Positions 2,324-41,950 are shown, counted from the first letter of the stretch. The stretch is 52,749 nucleotides of DNA from an uncultured Candidatus Bathyarchaeia archaeon (GCA_964416035.1 CAYQCQ010000001.1:1-52749); one strand, 5' to 3'. The notes: generated by a model from the letters alone, not told the origin. Program-made: numbers and translations.

Positions 2324-5266
2324 ATGAAAAGCTGCTACTTACTCAATAGAACCAAGTCAGAGCATAGGATAAGGGCGCACGGATCTGAGAGCTTGGAAGT
2401 GAATACAGCACAGAATGCAAGCAACGCGTTCAGCAGACTAGTGGAGCCGGTCTGGTCCGCTATGGAAGAATTGGGCATCAAGATTCCAACGGACATACAA
2501 AAGGCAGCACTGGATCCCATATTGAAAGGCAAAAATGTTCTCATCGTAGCCCCAACTGGGACTGGGAAGACTGAGGCAGCGCTCCTTCCGATCTTCTCCA
2601 GACTTCTCTCTACTTCTGACAGAAAAGGCATCAGCGTTCTATACGTGACCCCATTGAGAGCGCTGAACAGGGACCTGATGAAGAGACTGACATTTTGGAG
2701 CACCAAACTCAACCTCACATGCGATGTGAGGCACGGAGACACCCCTAGAACCCAAAGAGAACGGCAAACTAGACGGCCTCCCACAATCCTAGTCACAACA
2801 CCAGAGACACTTCAAGCCATACTTCCAGCCAAGAGGATGAGGCAACACCTGAAAAACGTGCGATGGGTCGTGGTCGATGAGATACATGAGCTCGCCCAGG
2901 ACAAGAGAGGGGTCCAGCTTACAGTCGGGTTGGAAAGGCTCCGTGAAGTCACTGGAGAAGATTTCCAGAGGATAGGCCTCTCAGCCACAGTTGGAGAACC
3001 CAACAAGATCGGCAGCTTTCTTGCGGGAGCTGACCGGAACATAGAACTCGTCACAGTTCAAGCGGCAAAGCAGACCAAATTCCGAGTGGAATTTCCTATT
3101 CCGTCCGAGGAGGACCACGACTTAGCGCAGACTCTATTCACCACCCCTGAAGCCGCTGCAAGGATCAATCGGATGAGGGAACTTGCAGACAATCATACTT
3201 CTACACTGATCTTTGTCAACAGCCGGCAAAACGCAGAAATGCTTGGGCTCAGGCTTGGAATGCTCGACAAAGCTATTGCCGTTCATCATGGTTCTCTTTC
3301 GAGAGAAGAGAGAGTCCGAATAGAGAACGAGTTCAAAGAAAGAAAGCTCAAAGCAATCGTTTGTACCTCCACGCTTGAACTTGGAATAGACATAGGTACA
3401 GTAGACCTCGTACTACAGTACCTCTCCCCACGCCAAGTCTCAACTCTCATTCAAAGGGTCGGTAGGTCAGGCCACAAGGTCGAAGCAACCTCCAAAGGAA
3501 CGATCATCTCAGCTCATAGCGACGATCTCCTAGAATCTGTCGCGACGATTGGAAGGGCTCAACAAGGAAAACTTGAGGCTCTGAGAGTCCATGAAAACGG
3601 TCTTGACGTGCTAGCACATCAGATTGCGGGCATCGTGATGGATAAGGACACTGTGAGTGCAGACCTGGCGTTTTCAATCATTAGAAGAGCGTATCCATAT
3701 AGGTCGCTGTCCCAAGAAGCCTATCGCCAAGTCATCGATTACCTTGCAGACCTGAGGCTCCTGAAGAAAGACAAGGGCATACTCAGCAAGTCAAGCCGAA
3801 CGAGGCTCTACTACTATGAGAACCTATCAATGATACCAGACGAGAAGAGATACCCCATAGTCGATGTCACGACGCAGCGAAATGTCGGCGTCCTCGGAGA
3901 GGAGTTCATGACTCTAAGAGCCCGAGTCGGCTTACACTTCATATGCCGAGGACGAGTCTGGGAGATCATGAAGATCTCAGAAGACGGCCGCGTCTACGTC
4001 CTGCCGATCGAAGACCCCACCGCAGCCATACCAGGCTGGGACGGAGAGATCCTTCCCGTCCCGTTTGAGATTGCCCAAGAGGTAGGGCAACTCAGGCGCC
4101 AAATAGCAGACGCCCTAACTGCTCAAGATCCTGAAACCGTAATCGATCAACTCGCAGACAAATACGAAATCGAGAGATACGGAGCAAGGAGAGCTGTAGA
4201 GGAACTCAACGAGCTTATTCGAGATGGAGTTCCCGTTCCTGACAACAATAGGATCCTAATCGAGGTTTTCGATAGGTACATGATCGTTCACGCCTGCTTC
4301 GGTGAGGCCGTAAACAGAACCCTTGGCTACATATTCGAAAGCATACTCTCGGAGAAACGGATCCTTCGAAACGTTTGGGCAGACGGCTACCGAATATTGA
4401 TTGAACTAGCAATAGAGGTCGAAGCTGACGAGATAGAAGGCTTGGTATCATCTATCCTCCGAATATCGCCGCAAGAAGCAGAAGCAGCCTTCAGGAAGTA
4501 CGTCGAGGCTAGAAGGCCCTTCTCATACTACATGAAATTCATCGCCGAAAGGTTCGGCGCCATTCCCAGAGGAGTTACAATCGCCGAGGAGGGGAGGCTT
4601 CAAGATCTGACGATCAGGTTCAGGAATACGCCCATCTACGACGAAACCATTCGTGAAGCACTTCAGGAGAAAGTTGACATCGAAAAAACCCGCCTCATCT
4701 TCTCCAAGATAGCCCTTGGAGAAATCGGTTTGCACATCACAGTTATGCAAGAGAATCCCACTCCCTTGGCCTATCATATATTGAACAAGTTTTCCGAGAC
4801 CCCTGAGATGGCAGCGCCCGAGAGCATAAGAAAGCAAAACATCGAGAGGATGAAGGCAGCTCTTCAATCGGAACATGCACAGCTCATGTGTATGGCGTGC
4901 GGAAAAGAGCAGTCTCAGCTTCGAGTTCAAGCCCTGAACGACCTACCCAAATGCCTCAACTGCGGGTCCGGTTTGCTAGCCGTCCTAAACAAGCACCGGA
5001 TAGCTTCCCTTTCCGTCACAAAGAAATGGTTCGGAGATCAGCCGTTGACGGAAGAGGAACAGAAGATACTCACTCGTACGAGAAGGACCGCTGACCTAGT
5101 TCTGTCATATGGCAAGAGGGGCGTTATGGCTCTCCTCACTTGGGGGGTAGGACCACAGACAGCTGCACAAGTCCTAGCAAAGATGCACAAGCATGAGGAA
5201 GATTTCTTCACGGACCTGTTGCAGGCGAAGCTGAAGTACATTCAGACTAGGCCGTTCTGGGATTGA
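2324..5266 (+). CDS. lhr: Lhr-type superfamily-2 ATP-dependent helicase (paralogue 1) with a C-terminal zinc ribbon
   Basis: - Walker A is APTGTGKTEAA and the DEAH-type box is VVVDEIHEL.
- Motif VI is RVGRSGH, followed by a long Lhr-like C-terminal extension.
- The zinc ribbon is CMACG-x17-CLNCG.
- The start is uncertain. ATG 2324 could be leaderless, while TTG 2393 or GTG 2399 aligns better with the N-terminus of paralogue 2. Confidence 0.9.
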   Translation: MKSCYLLNRTKSEHRIRAHGSESLEVNTAQNASNAFSRLVEPVWSAMEELGIKIPTDIQKAALDPILKGKNVLIVAPTGTGKTEAALLPIFSRLLSTSDRKGISVLYVTPLRALNRDLMKRLTFWSTKLNLTCDVRHGDTPRTQRERQTRRPPTILVTTPETLQAILPAKRMRQHLKNVRWVVVDEIHELAQDKRGVQLTVGLERLREVTGEDFQRIGLSATVGEPNKIGSFLAGADRNIELVTVQAAKQTKFRVEFPIPSEEDHDLAQTLFTTPEAAARINRMRELADNHTSTLIFVNSRQNAEMLGLRLGMLDKAIAVHHGSLSREERVRIENEFKERKLKAIVCTSTLELGIDIGTVDLVLQYLSPRQVSTLIQRVGRSGHKVEATSKGTIISAHSDDLLESVATIGRAQQGKLEALRVHENGLDVLAHQIAGIVMDKDTVSADLAFSIIRRAYPYRSLSQEAYRQVIDYLADLRLLKKDKGILSKSSRTRLYYYENLSMIPDEKRYPIVDVTTQRNVGVLGEEFMTLRARVGLHFICRGRVWEIMKISEDGRVYVLPIEDPTAAIPGWDGEILPVPFEIAQEVGQLRRQIADALTAQDPETVIDQLADKYEIERYGARRAVEELNELIRDGVPVPDNNRILIEVFDRYMIVHACFGEAVNRTLGYIFESILSEKRILRNVWADGYRILIELAIEVEADEIEGLVSSILRISPQEAEAAFRKYVEARRPFSYYMKFIAERFGAIPRGVTIAEEGRLQDLTIRFRNTPIYDETIREALQEKVDIEKTRLIFSKIALGEIGLHITVMQENPTPLAYHILNKFSETPEMAAPESIRKQNIERMKAALQSEHAQLMCMACGKEQSQLRVQALNDLPKCLNCGSGLLAVLNKHRIASLSVTKKWFGDQPLTEEEQKILTRTRRTADLVLSYGKRGVMALLTWGVGPQTAAQVLAKMHKHEEDFFTDLLQAKLKYIQTRPFWD

Positions 5267-5336
5267 ATTTGACTCCGCCTAGTTTTTTACTCTCTTCAAA
5301 GAACGTATCAGGCGCACCGCAGGGTGATCCGGGAAT

Positions 5337-7322
5337 ATGATCAAAGGAGTGGTCCTCCGCAACTTCATGTCCTACTCCAACGCTTCAGTTCCACTCTATC
5401 CCGGATTGAACCTGATAGCCGGCCCCAACGGAGCCGGAAAGTCGTCAATTCTTCTCGCGATATCGCTCGTCTTGGGCCAAGCATATACAGAGAGGTCAAA
5501 GAGATTGAGCGACCTTATCCGCTGGGGGGAAGACCAAGCCCGCATAAGCCTTCTCCTGGATAATTCTCTGAGGGAGGGAAAGAGGCCATTTCCTCAATAC
5601 CACATGGACACAGTCGACGTAACGAGAATACTGAGAAAAGGAGGAGACTACGCATATCTTCTCCAAGGAAGGCCCACATCGAAAGAAAGGGTAGTCGAGG
5701 TCTTCACCCGGATCGGGGTCAACCCAGGCAACATGCTAATCATCATGCACCAATTGATGGTAGGAAGGTTCGCCTCAATCTCTCCACAAGAGAAGCTGCA
5801 CATGCTTGAAGAGGCTGTCGGCTTCGAATCCTATCGAGCGGACGTCATTGATGCCGATACTCGCCTGAGGAAAGCGCTGAGCGAAGAGGAGTCCCTTGCG
5901 GCGGTTCTGGAATCAACTCAAGAAACCTATCAGTATTGGAAGAAAGAGTACGAAAAATATCAGAAGAAAAGAGAGCTTGAGGAAAAGCTACGACGACTCC
6001 AGAGCGAGTTGCTCTGGGGAAGGGTTGAGCGGAGAGAAGTAACTCTCGCCAAACTCGACGACAAGATAGAGTCCAGAAGAAAAGCCATAGAACTCACTGA
6101 AGCCAAAACAGACGAAGCGAAGGAAGCCCTAGGCACAAGGCGTCGAGCATTGGACAGTGCTCTCAGCAAGCGTCACCAACTTGAAGAGAAGAGGATAGGA
6201 CTGGAGCGTGAAATCGCTCGAACCGAAACTGATGTTAGATGGGCCAAACTCCAAACCCGAAACACGGTTGAGGAGCTTGAGACATTGTCTCGCATGCTTG
6301 CAGGGCTAAAGAATCCCAGCTCAGGCCAAAGTACCGCCGCGACGATGATCGAACCACTCGTCGAACTCAAAGAGCGGCTTGAATCTAGGAAGAACGAGTA
6401 CGAGGCACTTTCGGTCTCTTCCTCACTCAAAGATGTTCAAGCAGACCTGGCCTCACTCATCCAAGAGCTTGAGAAAGCGCGTCAAACGGTAGATACGGCG
6501 ATCGAACGCGTCATAGATGCGAGAGTTCAGTTCGAGGTTCTTCAATTCAGAAAGAAACTTCTTTCAGATGAACTGCGGGGCCTCCAAGCGCAGAGAAGGA
6601 TCGCAAAGCAGGAGCTAACTCCACTCATCAAGAGAGCCGAGCGGCTGGGACCCAGACCAACCAAGATCAAAAACATAGGCGATCTTGAAATGGCGATTGC
6701 TGCCGTGGAGGAACAGGTCAGGCCGCTCGCACACATTTCAGAAGAGGTTGAGAAGATGTACAGCTCGTATGTCGGGCTTGTGAAAGACTTGAGGGAGAAA
6801 GCTGAGCTTGTAGCCAAGAACAGAGAGGAGGTTCTCCGCGAGTTGGCGAAACGGTTTGATATGTGGAAGAGCATAGTAGAGAGCTTTCTCGGTCAGCTAA
6901 GTGACAGATACAACGGCACCCTCAACAGTATTGGCGCCTCAGGAACCGTTCGTCTTGTCGAGGCCAGGGACATAGAGAAGGCCGGGCTGGAGTTGCTGGT
7001 TTCCTTCAAAGGTGGGAAGCCAACCCCGATAGATGGGCTCACGCAGAGTGGCGGAGAGAGAAGCGTGGCCCTCATGGCTTTCCTCTTGGCTCTGCAGCAA
7101 CATATCAAGTCGCCTTTTCGTGCGATCGACGAGTTCGATGTTCACTTGGATCCCCGAAACCGCGAGATGGTTTCAGACCTAATCGTCTCAAGCTTCAAAG
7201 AATCTAAGGAAGAGCAGTACTTGGCAATTACACCTGGACAGATAGAAGCGGTCAAGGACAATGTCCATGTCATAGTAGTACAGAACGTCTCCGGGCTCTC
7301 CGAAATCTCAGAGGTGAAGTAG
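5337..7322 (+). CDS. short SMC-family ATPase (661 aa) with an Smc5/6-like head, short coiled coil and no hinge
   Basis: - The N-terminus is MIKGVVLRNFMSYSN...LNLIAGPNGAGKSS (Walker A).
- The Q-loop region is IIMHQLMVGRF..EKLHMLEEAVGFESY.
- About 350 aa of heptad-rich E/K/R/L sequence follow.
- The C-terminus carries the signature QSGGERSVAL and Walker B/D-loop FRAIDEFDVHLDPRN. Confidence 0.85.
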   Translation: MIKGVVLRNFMSYSNASVPLYPGLNLIAGPNGAGKSSILLAISLVLGQAYTERSKRLSDLIRWGEDQARISLLLDNSLREGKRPFPQYHMDTVDVTRILRKGGDYAYLLQGRPTSKERVVEVFTRIGVNPGNMLIIMHQLMVGRFASISPQEKLHMLEEAVGFESYRADVIDADTRLRKALSEEESLAAVLESTQETYQYWKKEYEKYQKKRELEEKLRRLQSELLWGRVERREVTLAKLDDKIESRRKAIELTEAKTDEAKEALGTRRRALDSALSKRHQLEEKRIGLEREIARTETDVRWAKLQTRNTVEELETLSRMLAGLKNPSSGQSTAATMIEPLVELKERLESRKNEYEALSVSSSLKDVQADLASLIQELEKARQTVDTAIERVIDARVQFEVLQFRKKLLSDELRGLQAQRRIAKQELTPLIKRAERLGPRPTKIKNIGDLEMAIAAVEEQVRPLAHISEEVEKMYSSYVGLVKDLREKAELVAKNREEVLRELAKRFDMWKSIVESFLGQLSDRYNGTLNSIGASGTVRLVEARDIEKAGLELLVSFKGGKPTPIDGLTQSGGERSVALMAFLLALQQHIKSPFRAIDEFDVHLDPRNREMVSDLIVSSFKESKEEQYLAITPGQIEAVKDNVHVIVVQNVSGLSEISEVK

Positions 7323-7324
7323 CC

Positions 7325-8161
7325 GTGGCAAAGAAGCTAGAGAGAGCGAAGCCCCACACAGCCATCGCAAGAAGAGATGTGATCGACATAGTGAAGACGT
7401 GCGAGGCCATTGAGGATCGAAAGTTCAATCCTTTCCTGCTCGACGTGAGGTACGCCCTCAACACCCTAAGGAAATACCTTCCTCACTGGAGGGAGCTTGA
7501 GGACCATTGCCTCGACGCCCATGCCCTTAACCGTCTGTCAAGAGTTCTCAGGCTTCAAGGCAGTCAGCTTAGATTCCAATCCAGCTCCCTCTACGCAGAC
7601 CCTGCCTTCCTCGAAGAAAAGCTAACAGCTCTAACAGTGAAACGTCTCGCCGAGATACTTGTGACGAGCTGGCACCCGATCGCAGAACTAGAGCAAATAA
7701 CCGAACCGTCGATGAGGGAGGCAATCGCGTACTGGAATGTTCTCGCTCCGATTGAGGAGCGGTGGAGGAGGTTTGAGATGGGAAGTTCTGCTCCTCCCGG
7801 GTTCCTTGAGTCAGAGGATCTAGACAAGATCGGGGTCCAAGCCAAAGAGACATTTGAGGAAACTCTATCAAAACTCTGGAGGCAGCTCAAGGAGGAGTCT
7901 AGCACTGGCGTGGTCGATTATCAAGATTTCATATGCAGAGAAGACTTTCTTGAAACTATTGAAAGAGCAGTCCAAGTGAGCTTTCTAGTTACCTATGGTT
8001 ACGCTAGGATGGTTGGGTCGAATGGGGCCGTGCAGCTGCTACCGAATGAAGAACGGAAGCTTGAACGCCACCCTGTGAGCTTTCCGGTATCTATAACGCG
8101 TGAGGTTTGGTCGAAGTGGAGAGAAAAGCGAAAGCTAAACGCTTCTTCGGCGATAAGGTGA
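7325..8161 (+). CDS. kleisin-like (ScpA-like) protein
   Basis: - The GTG start lies 2 nt after the SMC stop.
- The N-terminal KFNPFLLDVRYALNTLRKYL resembles the ScpA F-x-GPLDLLL helix.
- The C-terminal FLETIERAVQVSFLVTYGYARMVGSNGAVQLLP resembles a kleisin winged helix.
- The 278-aa length fits ScpA.
- The assignment rests on motif resemblance only. Confidence 0.55.
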   Translation: MAKKLERAKPHTAIARRDVIDIVKTCEAIEDRKFNPFLLDVRYALNTLRKYLPHWRELEDHCLDAHALNRLSRVLRLQGSQLRFQSSSLYADPAFLEEKLTALTVKRLAEILVTSWHPIAELEQITEPSMREAIAYWNVLAPIEERWRRFEMGSSAPPGFLESEDLDKIGVQAKETFEETLSKLWRQLKEESSTGVVDYQDFICREDFLETIERAVQVSFLVTYGYARMVGSNGAVQLLPNEERKLERHPVSFPVSITREVWSKWREKRKLNASSAIR

Positions 8162-8685
8162 AGAGAGCTACGCATCTTCTCCTCTTCCGTAGAGGAAAGC
8201 TGCCTGGAGCGAAGGGCTGGGAGCTAAGGGCAAGGCTGGGAGAAGACTATGAGGAGATTCTCAGACAGCTCAACGAACTCCTCGATAATGTCGACCTAGA
8301 AGTGAAGACAATAGAGTCAACAGCCGGCGTCGCATCGTTTGGGGAGACGCTTACGCCTGAGTCGCGTTACGTGGCAACACTAAAGGGCACAATAAGCCTG
8401 AGGGAGGCAAGGATGTGCGGCTGGAGGATCGACAGCCTCGCTGGGCTAGCCATCGCCATAGCTTACGTCGTTTCAAAACAGGGAAAGGCCCCAAGGAAAG
8501 AAGTTGAGAAGATCCTCGCAAGGAAATTCGGCAAGTGGAGAGCCATGGCTATGACCGACGCTTTTTCAAGAGTGGGATACTTTGGCGAGGACGAATCAGG
8601 TATGCTCTATTTGGACTGGAGAACCAGAGCTGAAGTGGACCTCAGAACCCTTATGTCAGTACTGGCCGAGGCAAGATTCGAATAG
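8158..8685 (+). CDS. ScpB/KITE-like tandem winged-helix protein
   Basis: - The track ORF starts at 8107, but GTG 8158 overlaps the upstream TGA (GTGA), which is a typical coupled start.
- THLLLFRRGKLPGAKGWELRARLGEDYEEILRQLNELL resembles ScpB winged helix 1.
- DSLAGLAIAIAYVVSKQGKAPRKEVEKILARKFG resembles ScpB winged helix 2. Confidence 0.5.
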   Translation: MKRATHLLLFRRGKLPGAKGWELRARLGEDYEEILRQLNELLDNVDLEVKTIESTAGVASFGETLTPESRYVATLKGTISLREARMCGWRIDSLAGLAIAIAYVVSKQGKAPRKEVEKILARKFGKWRAMAMTDAFSRVGYFGEDESGMLYLDWRTRAEVDLRTLMSVLAEARFE

Positions 8686-8724: not shown

Positions 8725-9144
8725 CTAGTATTTCTCGATCGTTCCACTTATGTGCCCTGTCTTGAGCAGGGCAAGATAATGGACAAGCTTGGGTACTCTC
8801 ATTTTTCCAGTATTATGTATTCTTTCGATTCTGCGGAACGCCTCTTTATCCACGTCCGCGTCAAAGATCAACTCACCGTTGTTCTCCACACGGAACGATC
8901 CAACTTCGCCGTAGATGCCCATAATATCTGACTTGGATAGGATTACAGATCCTCCGGAGATCACGATCTTTTTCGGATCCAATGGCCTTTCGGAGTCGCT
9001 ACTCAGCTCGCCCACGTAGCCTCGCATAGCCTCATTTACGAGATCTGCTACATTTTTGCCCTGTTCCTTTGCCCTTCCAATCAGCTTACTGTAGACCTGC
9101 TTATCGAGGCCACGGATTAAGACAGTGTTAGAGCCGCTTGCCAA
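8725..9144 (-). CDS. ribbon-helix-helix (CopG/Arc-like) regulator with an unassigned beta-rich C-terminal domain
   Basis: - The N-terminal TVLIRGLDKQVYSKLIGRAKEQGKNVADLVNEAMRGY fits the RHH strand-helix-helix pattern.
- It has a TTG start with GGAGG about 10 nt upstream.
- A palindromic operator candidate sits in its promoter. Confidence 0.6.
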   Translation of the reverse strand: MASGSNTVLIRGLDKQVYSKLIGRAKEQGKNVADLVNEAMRGYVGELSSDSERPLDPKKIVISGGSVILSKSDIMGIYGEVGSFRVENNGELIFDADVDKEAFRRIERIHNTGKMRVPKLVHYLALLKTGHISGTIEKY

Positions 9145-10577: not shown

Positions 10578-10698
10578 GTTGGCGGCCATAGCTGGGAGCT
10601 AGGACCCGTACCCATTTCGAACACGGCAGTGAATCTCCCAGGCGATTCAGGCTGTAGTGTGGTGCGAAAGCCCATGCCAAACTTGGACAGCTGCCAGC
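10578..10698 (+). rRNA. 5S ribosomal RNA (not linked to 16S/23S in this window)
   Basis: - The sequence GUUGGCGGCCAUAGC...CCCAUUUCGAACACGGCAGUGAAUC...GCUGCCAGC matches the 5S consensus core (CAUUUCGAAC.CGG.AGU.AA).
- The 5' and 3' ends form a 9-bp helix I. Confidence 0.9.
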
Positions 10699-10773
10699 TC
10701 CATTCGAATGCCCAATTAAGGTTTATAACAGTCACTTAACAGTCTTAGGGAAGATTCGCCAGAGGCACTTCAG

Positions 10774-29613: not shown

Positions 29614-32175
29614 ATGCAGTCGCATAGCACATGGTCAAGAACTGACCGATCTTTTCCATTCTCAGCGATCGTGGGGCAGGATAAGACGAAGCTGGCGCTG
29701 ATCGTGAGCATAGTAGACCCTGAGATTGGAGGTGTCCTTCTTACCGGGCCGAAGGGAGCAGGAAAATCGCTGATGGCAAATGGCTTGGAAAGGGTTCTAC
29801 CTGAGATCGATGTTGTGGAAGGTTGCCGGTACAATTGCTCTCCAAAAGATCGAGCAAATGTGTGTCAAGAGTGTAGATCCAGACTTCAAAGAGGCGAGGA
29901 GCTGCCGTCAAAGAAGAAGAGAATGCGTATTATTCGCCTCCCGATTGGTGCAACTGAGGACAGAGTCCTTGGCGGAGTGGACCTTGAGAAAGCGGTCGCC
30001 CTTGGATTTATGGTCCTGCAGCCTGGGCTCCTTGCTGAGGCAAACCGGAACATCTTGTACGTTGATCAGATCAATCTTCTTTCCGAACATCTTGTTGACT
30101 CCTTGCTGGACGCGGCCGCGTCTGGTTGGACGCGAGTCGAGAGAGAAGGGCTGTCAACAAGCCATCCATCCCGATTCATATTGATTGGTTCCATGAATCT
30201 AGAAGAGGGAGAGCTGAGACCGCAGATAATGGATCGGTTCTCGCTCCAGGCGTCTGTCTTCTCAGAAGAGAACCTTGAGCTGAGGACGGACATTCTCAAA
30301 CGGAATATGGACTTTGATCAAGATCCTTCATCCGTCATAGAGTTGTACAAGAAAGAAGATGAGCGGCTTACAGAAGCGTTGGTTGAAGCAAGAGACCGGT
30401 TGCGGTCTGTTAAGATTCCTGAGGAGGTAAGCAAGGCCGTGGCTAGGATCTGTAGTGAGCTGAGGGTTGATGGTCATAGACCTGACATCGTTACTTTGAG
30501 GACTGCAAGAGCCATTGCGGCATACGCGGGCAGACTTGAAGTCAGCATGGAGGACATCATGTTGGCGGCCGAGCTTTCCCTAGTGCACAGGTCACGAGGC
30601 TTTGGAACATTGGGCCCACCATCGATGGAGGAGATCCGGGCTTCCCTGCAAAAGGCACTTGTCAAGGAGGCTCAGAGAGCCGTTATTCCTTCGAAGCCGA
30701 AGGTTCAAGGCGAGGTCAGGACACGACTACGGGTTCCTCAGATGGCTCTGAGGCCCGTAAGAAAACTCTCTCAGCGAGAAGTCTTGATAAAACTGATACT
30801 TGCCGTCGCTCTTCCTTTCCTGCATTTTGTGTTGGCGGTAACACTTGTTGCGTTTTTCCTCCTTTCTATACAAGGTTTCCTAGGAGTACCGTTTTCGCGA
30901 GCTATCGACACTTACTGGGTTCACTATTGGATCGCTGTTATTGGAATTTTTCTCTTCCTGATGGTGTTCCTCTATCGACGAAGGGAGACGTTGTACGTTG
31001 CTGACTTGCAGGCTCAGCAGCTTTCAAGGCTTCTTGTTGACAAACAGATCATAGCCGACGAACTATTTCCAGGTATGACATTTGATTTCTTGGAAGGAAC
31101 GCCTCCAACGTACACGATCGTGCCGCTTGAGGTTGAGGTGAAATTGCCTAAGATCGTTGCTTTCCTTGAAAAAGGGTCGAAGACCCTTTCTCACATTTTC
31201 AAGCCGTCCAGAGAGAGCTTCATCAAGAGGGAATTTGTTCCTGTGTTGGAGAGGAGAGTCCGTCCACTTAGACGATACGTTGTGGGGAAGCACTCGAAGG
31301 CTGAGACGAGAGGTCAAGTTGGAAGGTACGTCTCCTATGAGATGCCCCGAAGGGGCCATAAGGATATCGCTTTCGGACCGACAATCCGCGCTGCGGCAAT
31401 CCACTCAGAGCCGATGTGGAAGGGACGTCTCCGCGTACGGATAAGGTCCTCGGACTTGAGGGTCAAGATAAGAGAGCATAAGGTGCCTTTGTCGATTCTC
31501 TTGGTCCTCGACATGAGCGAGTCAATGATCTCGTCCCTTGACAATGTTGGCAAAGCTATCCTGAGTCTGCATAGGACTGCTTCAAGGAAACGAGACAGGG
31601 TTGGTCTGGTAGTCTTCAAGGGAAGTGAAGCAGTTCTTTTGCAGCATCCAACAAGAAACCTTCGACAGGTTGTGAAGAAACTTCTTGATCTGGGTGCGAG
31701 TGACTTCACTCCTCTTGCTGCTGGAATGACGAAAGCGCTTCAAGTCTTGAGGGTTGAGACGACTAGGAATAGAGACTCCATAGCACTCATAGTTATCATC
31801 ACTGATGGAATCGTGAATGTGCCTCTTTCGCAGCCTTTGAGCCTCTCAACTCGGAAGGATTTCACGAACTCAGCTCAGGCTGATGTTGTCGATGTGGCCA
31901 GACTGATCGCCAAGGAAGGGATCAGGACACTGATCATAAACACTGATCACCGGGAGGAACTCTTACCAAAAGATCTGCCTAGCAAGCGAAAGTGTTTGTC
32001 CCCTTCAGGGCTATTGATAGAGGTGGCTAAGATAACTAAAGGTAGGTACTACGGACTTGCCACGGAAGGGGCACAAGGTTCTCCTCAGCTCCGGCGTGAA
32101 GAAGAAGCGGTAACTCTGGCGAGGCCCTTAGTCCAGTATTTGGCCAGGGGCTCTACTAGTGCATTGTACCGTTGA
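29614..32175 (+). CDS. ChlD/BchD-like protein: AAA+ domain, hydrophobic (TM) linker and a C-terminal vWA domain
   Basis: - It starts 2 nt after the chlI-like stop.
- The N-terminal domain is paralogous to the upstream gene, with an intact Walker A (GPKGAGKS).
- The linker has strongly hydrophobic stretches at 30781-30975.
- The vWA domain has MIDAS residues DMSES (31510-31524), then ..T.. and ITDG. Confidence 0.85.
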   Translation: MQSHSTWSRTDRSFPFSAIVGQDKTKLALIVSIVDPEIGGVLLTGPKGAGKSLMANGLERVLPEIDVVEGCRYNCSPKDRANVCQECRSRLQRGEELPSKKKRMRIIRLPIGATEDRVLGGVDLEKAVALGFMVLQPGLLAEANRNILYVDQINLLSEHLVDSLLDAAASGWTRVEREGLSTSHPSRFILIGSMNLEEGELRPQIMDRFSLQASVFSEENLELRTDILKRNMDFDQDPSSVIELYKKEDERLTEALVEARDRLRSVKIPEEVSKAVARICSELRVDGHRPDIVTLRTARAIAAYAGRLEVSMEDIMLAAELSLVHRSRGFGTLGPPSMEEIRASLQKALVKEAQRAVIPSKPKVQGEVRTRLRVPQMALRPVRKLSQREVLIKLILAVALPFLHFVLAVTLVAFFLLSIQGFLGVPFSRAIDTYWVHYWIAVIGIFLFLMVFLYRRRETLYVADLQAQQLSRLLVDKQIIADELFPGMTFDFLEGTPPTYTIVPLEVEVKLPKIVAFLEKGSKTLSHIFKPSRESFIKREFVPVLERRVRPLRRYVVGKHSKAETRGQVGRYVSYEMPRRGHKDIAFGPTIRAAAIHSEPMWKGRLRVRIRSSDLRVKIREHKVPLSILLVLDMSESMISSLDNVGKAILSLHRTASRKRDRVGLVVFKGSEAVLLQHPTRNLRQVVKKLLDLGASDFTPLAAGMTKALQVLRVETTRNRDSIALIVIITDGIVNVPLSQPLSLSTRKDFTNSAQADVVDVARLIAKEGIRTLIINTDHREELLPKDLPSKRKCLSPSGLLIEVAKITKGRYYGLATEGAQGSPQLRREEEAVTLARPLVQYLARGSTSALYR

Positions 32176-37123: not shown

Positions 37124-39031
37124 CTAGCTTCCCCCTTTGACTTCTGGTGACCGAATCCGCTCATAGACGGTTTCAGGGTACGCGTTCATTGCTTGGAACC
37201 ACTCGAGCAATCTCTGTCTTCTTGCTGCTGGATCCTCGGGAATTGAGAGAGGCCTGCCTCTGCAGTCAAAGATCAAGCCGACAACGCCGCCTTCCACTGT
37301 CGTTTCTAGGCCATGGCCCGGTCCTCTTCCCACATCCAAATCCTTCGCGGGTGAGAGAACCAGTTTGGCGGTCTTGCCTGATTCGAGTGGAACCACCTTT
37401 ATCGAACCAAAGGCCACATTCTCCTCCACCACGTGGCCCTCAGCTTCAACCTTGAAGCTCAGAGCGTTTCCCTCTTCCTTAAGTACGCCTCTCGGCGCTA
37501 TGCAGGTTCCCAGCCTCACTAGGCAGTCTTTCTCGAAGATCTCGAGAGCTGCTTGCGGGTGGACGGTCGATAGGACACCGAGATGCGGCATCATAAACAC
37601 ACTATCTTGAGCCAGCCTCGTCAGCCCTTCCGGCTGGAACCCATCTATCAAGAGAAGCGCTGACTGTGCCCGTCTCGGTGCGTGAGAAAGCAACCCTCCG
37701 GTTCCTGCCAAGAAGTCTACGTGCATCATGTCAATATACGTCTCCACCCCAGTTGATTGCTCAAAGATCTCTCCCATGGTTCTTACTCTCTGGATGCCCC
37801 TCAAGCCTCTGGCCAGCTGCTTGTGATGCTGGAAACCCAATCTAAGAGCCTCGCGAGCGACGGCATGTTCTACCATGAGCTCCTCCAAGGTCTGCGGAAT
37901 AGTTGTCGGCCTAATCATCTTGTTTCTCAGCCTGTTGCGGACAAGAACAGGTTCGATGTCAAATGGAATCCATCGCATGATGTTGTCGATCGTAGCCTCC
38001 TTCATGACATTGCAGATGCTATAACTCATCCCCAAGTTGGCGCTGACAGTCCTTACGAACTTTCCATCGTATATTGAGTATACATTCGTGGTCGCTCCGC
38101 CTAAGCCGACCCCGATGACGTTAACTCTCCTCAACTCTGCCAAGGTTCTAAACATTCGGCCTTCCCCTGCAGGAGTCGGCATGATCGGAACGTCTGTCCA
38201 TTTCATCAGCTTGTCATAGCCTGGTGCATGAGACATGACGTGCTCCATGAAAAGCTCATGAATCGCGTCGCGGGCGGGTTCTGTGTTCTCAAGCTCAAGC
38301 ATTGGTCTGATATTGTCTACTATTCTGACAGCAAACTTGTCTCCCAGAGTTTTCGAGACAGCTGTCCTTGCGTCCTTGTTTCCTGCGTAGACGATTGGTA
38401 GCTCATAGCCTATCCCAAGCCGTGCCCTCGGCTCGGCCGCAGCTATCAGCTCGGTGATCTCCGCGACATGGGTAATTGTGCCGCCGTCCGTTCCTCCGGC
38501 AAGTAGGATCATGTCCGGCCTGAGTGTTCTTATTATCTCAATTTTCTGGTGGGGCATCCTTCCGTCATCAACTGCGATTACGTCCATTACGATGGCTCCG
38601 GCGCCGAGGGCGGCTCGCTCAGCGCTTTCCGCAGTCATTGTCTTCACGACTCCGGCAACCATCATCTGGAGACCACCACCCGCACTACTAGTTGTGGCAT
38701 AGAGATCGACACCGTTTCCGTTCGCCCTGCGCGGCCACACGATGCCTTCTTCTTCAAGCAAACGCAGTCCTGTAAGCTCTTCCACTTCTCGAACCGCGTT
38801 TCTGACACCTCTCGTCACGTCTTCGAATGGAGCCTCAACGGTTGTTGGAGCTTCTCCGCTGGAAACAAATCTGTACTCGTTGCTTTTCTTCCTGAAGAGA
38901 CGCGCCTTGGTGGTGGTGCTGCCTACGTCCGTCACCAGCATTATCTCAAATTCTTCCGGCTTCTTTGTTTGGCGCTGGCTCGTAGTTCCTCGCCTCTCTC
39001 TAAACTTGGCTAGACGGATTACCTTGCTCAT
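37124..39031 (-). CDS. GlmL/MutL-like ASKHA (actin-fold) ATPase
   Basis: - MLVTDVGSTTTKARLF is the phosphate-1 motif of the glutamate-mutase-L-like family.
- Later Gly-rich motifs are TTSSAGGGLQMMV, LLAGGTDGG, GVGLGGATTNVYS and LAGTGGLLSH.
- The true start may be Met31 at 38941. Confidence 0.8.
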   Translation of the reverse strand: MSKVIRLAKFRERRGTTSQRQTKKPEEFEIMLVTDVGSTTTKARLFRKKSNEYRFVSSGEAPTTVEAPFEDVTRGVRNAVREVEELTGLRLLEEEGIVWPRRANGNGVDLYATTSSAGGGLQMMVAGVVKTMTAESAERAALGAGAIVMDVIAVDDGRMPHQKIEIIRTLRPDMILLAGGTDGGTITHVAEITELIAAAEPRARLGIGYELPIVYAGNKDARTAVSKTLGDKFAVRIVDNIRPMLELENTEPARDAIHELFMEHVMSHAPGYDKLMKWTDVPIMPTPAGEGRMFRTLAELRRVNVIGVGLGGATTNVYSIYDGKFVRTVSANLGMSYSICNVMKEATIDNIMRWIPFDIEPVLVRNRLRNKMIRPTTIPQTLEELMVEHAVAREALRLGFQHHKQLARGLRGIQRVRTMGEIFEQSTGVETYIDMMHVDFLAGTGGLLSHAPRRAQSALLLIDGFQPEGLTRLAQDSVFMMPHLGVLSTVHPQAALEIFEKDCLVRLGTCIAPRGVLKEEGNALSFKVEAEGHVVEENVAFGSIKVVPLESGKTAKLVLSPAKDLDVGRGPGHGLETTVEGGVVGLIFDCRGRPLSIPEDPAARRQRLLEWFQAMNAYPETVYERIRSPEVKGGS

Positions 39032-39177: not shown

Positions 39178-40569
39178 TTGTCAACGAGAATTGCAGAGAA
39201 GGCGGTCGCGCTCTGCGAAAGGCTCGGAGCCGATTATGCCGACGCAAGAGTTGAACGAACATATTCCACGGACATTAGGCTCATGAAAGACACGTTTGAC
39301 CAAGTAGCCTCCGGAGCCGACCAAGGGCTGGGAATCAGAGTTCTCTACAAGGGAGCATGGGGATTCGGCTCCTCGACTTCACTGGAGCTAAGAAACGTTT
39401 CACAAACCATTCGTGAGGCTTTCAAGGCCGCAAAGGCCACTGCCTCGCGCACCCAAATGAAAGCTCGTCTAGCAGAGGTCTCCCCGGTCAAGGATGTTGT
39501 GACAGCTACTGTGAAGGAGCCAATGCGGTCGGTACCAATAGACAGGAAGATGAAGCTAACCTTGGAGACTTCAGAGGAGGCTACGAAGGTTGACAAGCGA
39601 ATTGCGAGTGTAACAGTGACTTACAGTGATTCCAGCGGAGAGGCCTACTTGGCGACGAGTGAAGGAACACGCTTGATTGGAAGGCCGAGTCGAGGAAGCA
39701 TCGTCATTGTGGCAGTCGCAAGAGAGGGAACAAAAGTGGGGACTATTCGAGAGAGGAACGGAATGCAAGCTGGATTCGAACTGTTCGAGAAGATAGATCC
39801 ACTGGGATTGGCGAGAAGAGCCGCTGAGAGGGCAGTCAAGCTGCTTGAGGCGGTTCCAGCTCCAAGCGGAAGATTCACCGTGATAGCTGACCAGAAACTC
39901 GCCGGGGTGTTTGCGCATGAGGCTGTAGGTCATGCCTCCGAAGCGGATCACGTGATAACCGGGGAATCTGTGCTCAAAGACAAGATTGGTCAAAGAGTGG
40001 GATCTGACCTAGTTACGATGTATGACGATTCTACGTATCCTCAAGGGTGGGGCTCCTCCATTTATGATTCAGAGGGGGTGCCTACGAAGAAACGTCTCAT
40101 CATAGACAAAGGGTTCTTGAGGGGATACATTCTGAACAGGGAGACCGCTGCCGAGTTGAATATGGATCCCAACGGAGGGGCTAGGGCTCAATCCTTCGCC
40201 TATCGGCCAGTGGTCAGAATGAGCAACACTTACCTGACAGTGGGTACTCAGAGCTTTGAGGAGCTCCTTGAAGAGGTAGACCACGGGGTCTACTTGAAGG
40301 GATCCCGCGGAGGACAGGTCGATACAGCCAAGGGAACCTTCCAGTTCAGCGCTGAGGAAGGACACTTGATTGAGAAGGGCCAGTTGACCAAACCGTTAAG
40401 CGATGTCTCGCTTTCAGGAATGACCTTGGAGACACTTATGAATATCGACGGCGTGGCTGACGACTTCCAGATGACCATTGGGCTATGTGGCAAGGCGGGA
40501 CAGGTCGTCACGACTGGAACTGGAAGTCCTCACATAAGAATCAGGAACGCCGTCGTAGGAGGGAAATAG
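39178..40569 (+). CDS. tldD: TldD-family metalloprotease
   Basis: - HEAVGHASEADHV is the TldD HExxxH site.
- It has the GxC motif region near the C-terminus (GLCGKAGQ).
- It has a TTG start. Confidence 0.9.
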   Translation: MSTRIAEKAVALCERLGADYADARVERTYSTDIRLMKDTFDQVASGADQGLGIRVLYKGAWGFGSSTSLELRNVSQTIREAFKAAKATASRTQMKARLAEVSPVKDVVTATVKEPMRSVPIDRKMKLTLETSEEATKVDKRIASVTVTYSDSSGEAYLATSEGTRLIGRPSRGSIVIVAVAREGTKVGTIRERNGMQAGFELFEKIDPLGLARRAAERAVKLLEAVPAPSGRFTVIADQKLAGVFAHEAVGHASEADHVITGESVLKDKIGQRVGSDLVTMYDDSTYPQGWGSSIYDSEGVPTKKRLIIDKGFLRGYILNRETAAELNMDPNGGARAQSFAYRPVVRMSNTYLTVGTQSFEELLEEVDHGVYLKGSRGGQVDTAKGTFQFSAEEGHLIEKGQLTKPLSDVSLSGMTLETLMNIDGVADDFQMTIGLCGKAGQVVTTGTGSPHIRIRNAVVGGK

Positions 40570-40570
40570 C

Positions 40571-41950
40571 GTGAACGAAACTTTGGAGTATGCGCTTAGA
40601 AGATGCATCAAACTAGGTGCTACTCAAGCAGAAGTGTTCGCGATCGACGAGGTTGGCACAAACATCGTGATCGAGAAGAAGCAGGTAAAGATTGGCCAAG
40701 TGAAGCGTGATCGCGGCATGGGCATAAGGGTCTTGGTCAAGAAAGATGGTGGAGCCTCAACAGGATTCAGCTATGTGACAGACTTCTCTAGGAGTACTGT
40801 GATGGAGGCGGTGGAGAAGGCGGTCACAACAGCCAAGGTGAAGCGCGCTGATAAAGATCTCAGGTCCTTTCAGGAAAAGGCTAGAACTCGAAAGGTCGCA
40901 AACATATTTGACAAAAGGATTCCCCGGACCGATCCGTCTGACCTGATCGAGGTTGGAAGGTCGATGTTAGAGCAAGCGTGCGAGGATTCGAGAGTATCTA
41001 CAGTCAGCGGCAGTGTGCATGCGGGCTTCGGAGAAACCTCCGTCGCCAACTCACTAGGGGTCTCAGGCAGCTACAGGTCGACTGGGTTCGGCGGCCATAT
41101 GTATGTGGTGGCTGAATCTGGGGGATCCGTAGGCGTTGGCTGGGAAAGCCACTCTTCAAGCCACTACGAGGGCAGGAAACTAGTCGCAGCGGCAGGCTAC
41201 GCCGCCGAGACAGCGATAAAGCAGCTGAATCCGAGGCCCCTCGAACCGGGAATCTATGACGTTGTTGTTGATCAGGACGGATTGGCAGACCTCTTCATGA
41301 ACACTCTTGTTCAGCAGATTAGAGCGGACTTGGTTCAGAGGAACCAATCCCCGCTTACAGGAAAGATTGGATCTGAAGTGGCTTCGGAGAATGTCACCTT
41401 GATGGACGATCCGAGTGTTCCGAGAGCGCTTGGCTCAAAACCTTTCGACTCTGAAGGATGCCCGACCAATCCTAGGCCGATAGTAGAGAAAGGTGTCCTC
41501 CGAACTTTCTTGCACAACTCGTATACAGCCAACAAAGAAGGCGTTGAGAATACAGGTAACTCCATGAGATACATCATGTTCGGAACGAGATCGGAGTACG
41601 CCCTCGAACCAAGCATAGGTCCACACAATCTAGTTCTGAAACCGGGCAAGGGAAGGAGAGAAGATCTGATCCGAGAGGTCAAGAACGGAATCCTGGTCAG
41701 AGGATTCATCGGAGCCCATACTTCAAACGTTCAGAGCGGCGACTTTTCTCTTGCGCTAGACTGCATCTTCAGAATAGAGAATGGGGAGTTGACCTTCCCT
41801 GTCAAGCAGGCCATGATAGGGGGAAACATGCCGAGCATCCTGAGGCAGATTCAGCTTGCGGCTGCAAATTCAAAGCAGGTGACGATGGGTCCAGGGATGA
41901 CGTTGATTTCACCGACCATCCTGATAGAGAAGCTCACCGTAGCGGCATGA
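40571..41950 (+). CDS. pmbA: PmbA/TldE-family partner of TldD
   Basis: - It starts 1 nt after the tldD stop.
- It is homologous in architecture but lacks HExxxH, as expected for PmbA. Confidence 0.85.
   Translation: MNETLEYALRRCIKLGATQAEVFAIDEVGTNIVIEKKQVKIGQVKRDRGMGIRVLVKKDGGASTGFSYVTDFSRSTVMEAVEKAVTTAKVKRADKDLRSFQEKARTRKVANIFDKRIPRTDPSDLIEVGRSMLEQACEDSRVSTVSGSVHAGFGETSVANSLGVSGSYRSTGFGGHMYVVAESGGSVGVGWESHSSSHYEGRKLVAAAGYAAETAIKQLNPRPLEPGIYDVVVDQDGLADLFMNTLVQQIRADLVQRNQSPLTGKIGSEVASENVTLMDDPSVPRALGSKPFDSEGCPTNPRPIVEKGVLRTFLHNSYTANKEGVENTGNSMRYIMFGTRSEYALEPSIGPHNLVLKPGKGRREDLIREVKNGILVRGFIGAHTSNVQSGDFSLALDCIFRIENGELTFPVKQAMIGGNMPSILRQIQLAAANSKQVTMGPGMTLISPTILIEKLTVAA

Follow-up and report, generated by a model that had tools for sequence, protein, structure and literature searches.

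A probable SMC5/6-related operon in a Bathyarchaeia genome, with a short ATPase predicted to lack a hinge

We analysed a stretch of 52,749 nucleotides (nt) from an uncultured Candidatus Bathyarchaeia archaeon (GCA_964416035.1, CAYQCQ010000001.1:1-52749), which is called the window below, with respect to three genes at positions 5337-8685 (g1, g2 and g3). Our analysis indicated that this part of the metagenome-assembled genome (MAG) very probably carries an archaeal SMC5/6-related SMC-kleisin-kite operon. An initial annotation of the window had proposed an SMC5/6-like ATPase, a kleisin and a kite protein in one archaeal operon, and this core proposal was borne out by the ranking of g1 matches in the PDB, the Nse4 matches of the g2 profile, the structure model of g3 and the synteny of the three genes. 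The operon type is already published for archaea, including Bathyarchaeia, and the present locus is a further member of it and not a discovery.

Gene layout and start sites

The three genes, and the Shine-Dalgarno-like motifs recognised before them by sequence inspection, are the following.

5323..5329, + strand: Shine-Dalgarno-like GGTGATC before g1, 7 nt 5' of its ATG
5337..7322, + strand: g1, SMC5/6-related SMC ATPase, 661 amino acids (aa), ATG start, predicted to have no hinge domain
7311-7317, + strand: Shine-Dalgarno-like GAGGTGA before g2
7325..8161, + strand: g2, predicted Nse4-like kleisin, 278 aa, GTG start
8102-8106, + strand: Shine-Dalgarno-like GAGGT before g3, 9 nt 5' of the GTG at 8116
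8116..8685, + strand: g3, predicted kite of Nse1/3 type without RING, 189 aa from the GTG at 8116 (192 aa from an alternative TTG at 8107)

All three open reading frames (ORFs; 5337-7322, 7325-8161 and the g3 ORF ending at 8685) are co-directional, and each has hundreds to thousands of homologs. They are real genes in a tightly packed operon, in agreement with the compact arrangement described in the initial annotation. The TAG stop codon of g1 (7320-7322) is followed by a 2-nt gap and then by the GTG of g2 at 7325, also as described there. The Shine-Dalgarno-like motifs of g1, g2 and g3 are putative ribosome-binding sites.

The start of g3 had been assigned to a GTGA stop/start overlap with g2. 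This tetranucleotide is indeed present at 8158-8161, at the end of g2, but g3 probably does not begin there. Alignment of 37 g3 homologs revealed that conservation reaches 5' of the GTG at 8158 (F-x-x-D-K, with K17 and K19 nearly invariant). The homologs are typically 188-193 aa long, and one of them, P0241, has the same start as the g3 reading from GTG 8116. Because of the upstream conservation, the homolog lengths and the spacing of GAGGT, we regard GTG 8116 and not the GTGA as the best candidate start, from which g3 would probably overlap g2 by 46 nt (55 nt from TTG 8107). The length of 192 aa originally given for g3 fits TTG 8107, not the GTGA start.

Identity of the three subunits

The motifs quoted for g1 in the initial annotation were all found: Walker A GPNGAGKSS (aa 29-37), EEAVG as part of LEEAVGF (aa 157-163), the signature QSGGERS (aa 570-576) and the Walker B/D-loop FRAIDEFDVHLDPRN (aa 594-608), which includes DEFDVH. 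Across 39 homologs there is no variation in Walker A, Q139, the signature, D598/E599, DEFDVH and H644. Judged by its motifs, g1 is an ABC-type SMC ATPase in which the whole catalytic set (Walker A, Q-loop, signature, Walker B, D-loop and H-loop) is intact. Its Pfam match is SMC_N (2.6e-33).

Within the SMC proteins, searches against the PDB ranked Smc5 first. Yeast Smc5 was the top match of the single g1 sequence (7.5e-35; archaeal Smc, 2.4e-28), and the g1 family profile gave yeast Smc5 (5e-50), Smc6 (2e-42), archaeal Smc (1.9e-39) and human SMC6 (9e-39). With the C-terminal head alone, Smc5 was clearly on top (1.9e-17 versus 1.7e-11 for archaeal Smc). In the alignment of this head, g1 reads TQSGGERSVA/PFRAIDEFDVHLDPRN, yeast Smc5 reads TQSGGERAVS/PFRVVDEINQGMDSRN and human Smc5 reads HQSGGERSVS/PFRVVDEINQGMDPIN; QSGGER and the PFRxxDE context of Walker B are common to all three. 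The earlier remark that QSGGER together with FRxxDEFDV is closer to Smc5/6 was therefore right for Smc5.

We also took the best 150 matches of an exhaustive profile search against 1.84 billion representatives. Among the matches listed, members of the g1 family covered scores between about 1,094 and about 200 bits, and just under them canonical SMC proteins were interleaved with proteins of 1,024-1,125 aa. Those of the latter that carry a name are eukaryotic SMC5 (Arcella, Tieghemostelium, Dictyostelium, Myriangium) or SMC6 (Thecaphora). The labelled matches under the g1 family are thus mostly eukaryotic SMC5/SMC6, which points to a strong enrichment for Smc5/6 because canonical SMC sequences are far more numerous. 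Neither Rad50 nor RecN was among these 150 matches.

The second protein, g2, has a strongly conserved N-terminal region, T-C-x-A-I-x-x-R-x-F-N-P-F-x-x-D (also written CxAIExRxFNPFxLD), and a C-terminal winged-helix region at about aa 198-267. A profile built from 38 homologs and run against all PDB sequences matched solely Nse4-family proteins, human EID3/NSE4B (2.4e-6) and yeast Nse4 (0.015), and the matches cover the C-terminal winged-helix region. Pfam Nse4_C was matched by 30 of the 38 family members. ScpA, to which g2 had been likened initially, was matched by none of the 38 in Pfam and did not appear in the PDB profile search. From these profiles g2 is predicted to be a kleisin of Nse4 type, with a C-terminal winged-helix domain.

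The AlphaFold2 model of g3 (predicted local distance difference test, pLDDT, 77.6) consists of two consecutive winged-helix domains. Its top four Foldseek matches in the PDB were chains of the human MAGE-G1(NSE3)-NSE1 complex and of the Nse1-Nse3-Nse4 complex, with E-values of 1.3e-5 to 5.5e-4 and, for three of the four, a TM-score on query length of 0.59-0.64; MukE and JetB were among the weaker matches. ScpB was absent from the Foldseek top 50 and was matched by Pfam in none of the 37 family members. Weak Pfam SMC_Nse1 matches were found in 12 of the 37, and the sequence was otherwise nearly silent. No RING is present in the model, where the 189 aa are taken up by the two winged-helix domains alone. 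The model thus presents g3 as a tandem winged-helix kite of Nse1/3 type: the tandem winged helices named in the initial annotation stood, and the comparison with ScpB did not. Single-sequence searches of the PDB and Pfam gave only sub-threshold hints for g2 and g3, for which family profiles and a structure model were required; with these, g2 matches the Nse4 family and g3 Nse1/3, not unrelated families, and the reading as an SMC-kleisin-kite operon stands.

Several observations weigh against an assignment to Smc5/6 in particular. The N-terminal head of g1 alone was closest to SMC2 (64.5 bits), followed by Smc5 (55.6), Smc (52.1) and Smc6 (49.9). The top canonical SMC of the exhaustive search reached 198 bits, slightly more than the 193 bits of the top SMC5-like protein, and the two groups tie at about 175-198 bits; P0462, a canonical SMC of 1,174 aa with an SMC_hinge domain, has 198 bits to the g1 family profile. 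Foldseek with the g1 model matched all SMC subfamilies and Rad50 and is non-discriminating, with a large root-mean-square deviation due to the long arms. The g2 sequence alone reached Nse4_C with an E-value of 5.8e-4 and 20.5 bits, under the Pfam threshold of 26 bits. The sisterhood of the g1 family to Smc5/6 rests on published trees and on the partner proteins.

These observations bear on the possibility that the locus encodes a miniaturised canonical condensin, Smc-ScpA-ScpB, which would fold or segregate the chromosome by loop extrusion. The best NCBIfam models of g1 are SMC_prok_A and SMC_prok_B, both far under their cut-offs (182 bits for SMC_prok_A, whose cut-off is 729 bits), the top Foldseek match of the g1 model is an archaeal Smc head with joint, and the N-terminal head is about equally close to Smc, SMC2 and Smc5, all of which would suit a condensin. 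The partners decide otherwise: with Nse4-family proteins as the only PDB matches of the kleisin profile and with neither ScpA nor ScpB found in the searches above, a condensin is largely refuted by the kleisin and kite results. The hinge-less, half-length arm described below and the separate ScpB-type kite that Bathyarchaeia usually possess, sometimes with a canonical kleisin and SMC, also count against it, and we consider it very unlikely.

Instead of a condensin-like architecture, the AlphaFold2 model of g1 (from a 39-sequence alignment, mean pLDDT 81.4) shows an N-terminal head (aa 1-163), an antiparallel coiled-coil hairpin (aa 164-530) and a C-terminal head (aa 531-661). The outgoing arm is a single continuous helix (aa 164-324), the tip is a 10-residue loop of low confidence (aa 325-334), and the arm returns in helices at aa 335-359, 363-437, 447-464 and 470-530. 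No globular hinge is seen in this model, and SMC_hinge was not matched in the Pfam search. A hinge is excluded in g1 because 661 aa are too short to fit one and because the model has none. Conservation within g1 is lowest at the tip (aa ~310-375), where column identity is 0.18-0.43 versus 0.8-0.94 in the heads and where insertions or deletions of up to ~23 residues occur across homologs. The tip contains no cysteine pair, and g1 has no CxxC hook. With 161 residues at ~0.15 nm per residue, the modelled arm would be ~24 nm long, roughly half of the ~47-49 nm given for the Smc arm in two papers (PMC5344682, PMC5526789). The initial annotation had spoken of a miniaturised complex. The ATPase is indeed short, at 661 aa and with an arm of half length, but it is not simply small, as the hinge is wholly absent from the model.

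The short form is not peculiar to g1. The best 120 homologs are all 605-681 aa long. Scanning a single genome per GTDB species gave 37 archaeal loci, in which full-length g1 matches span ~1,650-2,040 nt. Lengths in the family are 548-685 aa. Among the 64 family representatives with 540 aa or more, 56 do not exceed 700 aa (median 614 aa). Going by length and by the g1 model, the hinge-less short form is the norm of the family.

Two kinds of rare, longer relatives were found. P0378, P0379, P0381 and P0429 (795-1,047 aa) possess a mid-arm CxxC, KCDKCGS or TCERCGS, which in sequence resembles the zinc hook of Rad50/ClsN; the P0378 cluster (locus L063), which comes from Bathyarchaeota, is a stand-alone form that lacks an adjacent kleisin or kite. 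P0391 (982 aa, L065 4014-8261) has a globular middle with sub-threshold matches to SMC_hinge (E-value 0.0064) and to the SMC2 hinge (0.24), and is followed downstream by a kleisin homolog (7e-25) and then a kite homolog (1.9e-25). It is probably a hinge-bearing form of the SMC5/6-related operon, and its existence suggests that the common short form lost its hinge. When we searched the literature for a hinge-less archaeal SMC, only an unrelated actinobacterial clade turned up.

Rad50, ASRP and RecN, too, typically have a short coiled coil and no hinge. This could suggest that g1 is an SMC-like protein of Rad50, ASRP (ClsN, Sph) or arcadin-4 type that lies beside two unrelated small genes by chance, and the stand-alone family members with a mid-arm CxxC fit such a view. 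In NCBIfam, however, the g1 matches to Rad50 (58.7 bits), ASRP (57.6 bits), arcadin-4 and RecN are much weaker than those to SMC, and the first two are far below their cut-offs (1000 bits for Rad50, 300 bits for ASRP). On the question whether the ATPase falls with Rad50 or RecN, raised in the initial annotation, these scores favour SMC. The lack of a CxxC hook in g1, its unconserved tip, the absence of an adjacent Mre11, and small neighbours whose resemblance is specifically to kleisins and kites and whose synteny holds in 34 of 37 loci further disagree with a chance arrangement. This explanation is already contradicted by the present data, and hardly any credence can be given to it.

Conservation, neighbours and possible role

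The 37 archaeal loci belong to Bathyarchaeia, Hadarchaeales, Methanomethylicia, Culexarchaeia, Korarchaeia, Thermofilales, Nitrososphaeria, one Thermoplasmata MAG and one Asgard Hodarchaeaceae MAG. Homologs that bear a name, and related loci, assign the window itself to Bathyarchaeia. With hidden Markov models (HMMs) of g2 and g3, a kleisin gene and then a kite gene were located directly downstream of the SMC gene in 34 of the 37 loci, so that the conservation of the triad asked about in the initial annotation extends over several phyla. Three additional loci (L064, L065 and L066) also have this order. The exceptions, L006 (4764-6875), L011 (5361-7319) and L026 (2-949), are stand-alone short ATPase paralogs of Bathyarchaeia without CxxC.

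In the window, the operon is flanked by genes for Tyr/Trp-type and Phe aminoacyl-tRNA synthetases, MetAP and DUF1512, and by a 5S rRNA gene. This is a core chromosomal context and not a defence island. Nse2, Nse5 and Nse6 were not among the operon genes, beside which lie an Lhr helicase gene, an ORF of 139 aa and housekeeping genes. The 52,749 nt of the window contain no second copy of g1, g2 or g3 and no canonical Smc.

This context is relevant to the alternative, already raised in the initial annotation, of a DNA-surveillance module, that is, an SMC-based defence system like Wadjet/JetABCD, Lamassu or MADS that restricts foreign DNA. PADLOC matched g1 to mad3 (1.3e-34, 118 bits), LmuB (1.8e-14), JetC (3.7e-10) and others, but these are matches to the generic SMC head only, with scores at about the level of Pfam SMC_N. 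MukE and JetB turn up as weaker structural matches to the kite, and human Smc5/6 restricts extrachromosomal DNA according to two papers (PMC9458440, PMC10586767). On the other hand, PADLOC matched neither g2, g3 nor the downstream ORF, and found no JetA/B/D, LmuA/C or MADS partners; partners of nuclease or methyltransferase type are absent, the flanks carry the aminoacyl-tRNA synthetases, the 5S rRNA gene and MetAP, and the synteny holds across several phyla, unlike that of patchy defence islands. A defence function is therefore improbable.

Two genes for large helicases of the Lhr family were identified in the window.

2324..5266, + strand: LhrA, aLhr1-type large helicase, 980 aa, with Pfam DEAD, Helicase_C, WH_Lhr and DEAD_assoc and two C-terminal CxxC
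41988-44858, - strand: LhrB, aLhr1-type paralog with a C-terminal double CxxC

Both paralogs thus have the C-terminal double CxxC that defines aLhr1 (PMC8301817). LhrA lies 70 nt upstream of g1 (gap 5267-5336) and is co-directional with it; it is possibly linked to the operon in function, and co-transcription is putative. An Lhr-type helicase was found within the retrieved flanks of 16 of the 37 loci. In 13 of the 37, which represent six or more lineages, among them the Hodarchaeaceae MAG, a convergent Lhr gene lies at most 1 kb downstream of the kite gene. The helicases of these loci are orthologs of LhrB of the window (40-56 % identity), not of LhrA. The LhrA arrangement of the window recurs in L066 (SMC 52 % identical), where LhrA is co-directional and just upstream; a 90-aa LhrA remnant lies upstream of the SMC gene in L064 (SMC 71 % identical), and an LhrA-type gene lies 2.3 kb downstream in L065, the locus of the hinge-bearing form. 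The Lhr-linked loci are L012, L015, L016, L018, L019, L022-L025, L028-L031, L036, L037 and L064-L066.

These adjacency counts, which are uncorrected for shared ancestry, make a linkage between Lhr and the operon suggestive. It is weakened by the lack of Lhr adjacency at most Bathyarchaeia loci and by the involvement of two different Lhr paralogs. Hajj et al. (2021) reported no conserved neighbourhood of aLhr and did not mention SMC, and the searchable Lhr and SMC papers contain no mention of an Lhr-SMC operon neighbourhood. Archaeal Lhr has been reported to unwind fork DNA preferentially (PMC7437997); the enzyme concerned is of aLhr2 type according to PMC8301817.

Since aLhr1-type helicases recur beside the operon, we propose a role in replication-fork repair. 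More generally, DNA repair or replication-fork maintenance together with aLhr1, and not chromosome-scale folding, is favoured with low to moderate confidence, because of these recurrent neighbours and because many members of the class have ScpB-type kites as well, with a canonical SMC and kleisin in some. The initial annotation had related the operon to lineages without a canonical condensin. Replacement of a missing condensin is unsupported for the class, since most Bathyarchaeia have ScpB-like kites according to van Hooff et al. (see below).

By analogy with well-characterised SMC-kleisin-kite complexes, two g1 heads would engage and sandwich two ATP. One g2 would span the pair, its N-terminal helices contacting one g1 at the neck and its C-terminal winged helix contacting the second g1 at the cap; g3 would be seated as a homodimer on the middle of g2, and DNA would be clamped on the engaged heads. 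Without a hinge, the two arms may contact each other via their coiled coils, or the ring may be closed by heads and kleisin only. A more far-reaching version of the SMC5/6-related reading is possible but doubtful. It takes the complex as a natively hinge-less head-kleisin-kite clamp of ~24 nm that acts with aLhr1 at stalled or broken forks and is an archaeal precursor of the partnership that eukaryotic Smc5/6 forms with fork-remodelling helicases. The hinge of P0391, the CxxC of the P0378 group and the hairpin of the majority would then reflect repeated swapping of the dimerisation device within one SMC family.

Previous studies have described this operon type. Yoshinaga and Inagaki (2021; PMC8665677) reported 80 "SMC5/6-related aSMC", 66 of them from TACK (Thaumarchaeota, Aigarchaeota, Crenarchaeota and Korarchaeota), which group with SMC5/6 in rooted trees, and the same authors (2022) gave 100 %/0.99 support for the SMC5/6-related sub-clade. 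Van Hooff, Raas, Tromer and Eme (bioRxiv 10.1101/2024.01.07.573240, version 2025-05-28) found that Nse4 branches with TACK and Asgard kleisins, defined an archaeal "Nse1/3-like" kite archetype, and observed the Nse4-related kleisin and the Nse1/3-related kite as neighbours in 31 of 31 cases. Their Bathyarchaeia rows mostly list one Nse4-related and one Nse1/3-related protein, as neighbours. In the same table, most Bathyarchaeia are listed with ScpB-like kites, to which a canonical SMC and kleisin are sometimes added; Table S3 includes a Bathyarchaeota MAG, E29_bin60 (SOJC01000029.1_1/2/3), with both condensin-type and SMC5/6-type operons. The published operons are from TACK, Asgard and a few Euryarchaeota. 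The present operon has the same gene content and order and comes from the same taxa, with no essential difference from them.

In a text search of van Hooff et al., "hinge" occurred only in the general introduction, and the supplements did not mention a missing hinge or short arm. Yoshinaga and Inagaki removed coiled-coil columns from their alignments, and a text search found no comment on arm or hinge. As far as these text searches show, the missing hinge with the short arm, the variety of arm tips within the family and the Lhr neighbourhood are not described in the papers on SMC5/6-related operons; the first and the last of these are worth following up.

Compared with eukaryotic Smc5/6, g1 shares QSGGER and the Walker B context of Smc5, g2 appears to share the C-terminal winged helix of Nse4 type, and g3 the tandem winged helix of Nse1/Nse3 type. 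In contrast to it, there is one SMC gene and one kite gene here, so that homodimers are probable rather than heterodimers; g1 has 661 aa against ~1,050-1,110 aa, with no hinge and an arm of ~24 nm in the model; and the kite has no RING and the operon no Nse2, Nse5 or Nse6. With Smc-ScpAB the operon has in common the SMC-kleisin-kite logic with one gene per subunit, but its kleisin and kite are predicted to belong to the Nse4 and Nse1/3 families and not to ScpA/ScpB, and the hinge-less g1 arm would be about half as long as the ~47-49 nm given for Smc in the two papers cited above. Rad50 and ASRP (ClsN, Sph1/2) likewise combine a head with an antiparallel coiled coil and have no globular hinge, and a few long g1 relatives have a mid-arm CxxC; g1 itself differs from them by its SMC-type head, its lack of CxxC, and its kleisin and kite partners in place of Mre11.

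The operon type bears on the origin of eukaryotic Smc5/6, a point that is already in print. If true, the hinge-less form would bear on what an SMC machine minimally needs in order to work and on whether the ancestor of Smc5/6 extruded loops or plainly clamped DNA, and the recurrent aLhr1 neighbour would provide a testable hypothesis of function (fork repair), also for the uncharacterised aLhr1. The small size of the subunits (661 + 278 + 189 aa) suits structural work on SMC-kleisin-kite mechanics.

Other features of the window and related loci

The 139-aa ORF downstream of the operon (8725-9144, - strand) is convergent with it and has no Pfam or PADLOC match. An ORF of identical size and placement is present in L064 (10388-10807, - strand). 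The window also contains genes for a PF13941 "MutL"-family protein, an Mg-chelatase/AAA+VWA protein and a PmbA/TldD pair (37124-39031, - strand; 29614-32175, + strand; 39178-41950, + strand), none with an evident link to the operon. The 52.7-kb window yielded no tRNA genes. The 5S rRNA gene (10578-10699, + strand; Rfam RF00001, 79.5 bits) is a lone one, with no 16S or 23S rRNA gene nearby.

In two Bathyarchaeia genomes, a second, distant SMC-like ORF of ~700 aa was found upstream of the operon. It lies ~3 kb upstream in L007 (673-2790, - strand) and ~2 kb upstream in L008 (2037-4148, - strand), and matches the family HMM with E-values of 1e-7 and 3e-6, respectively.

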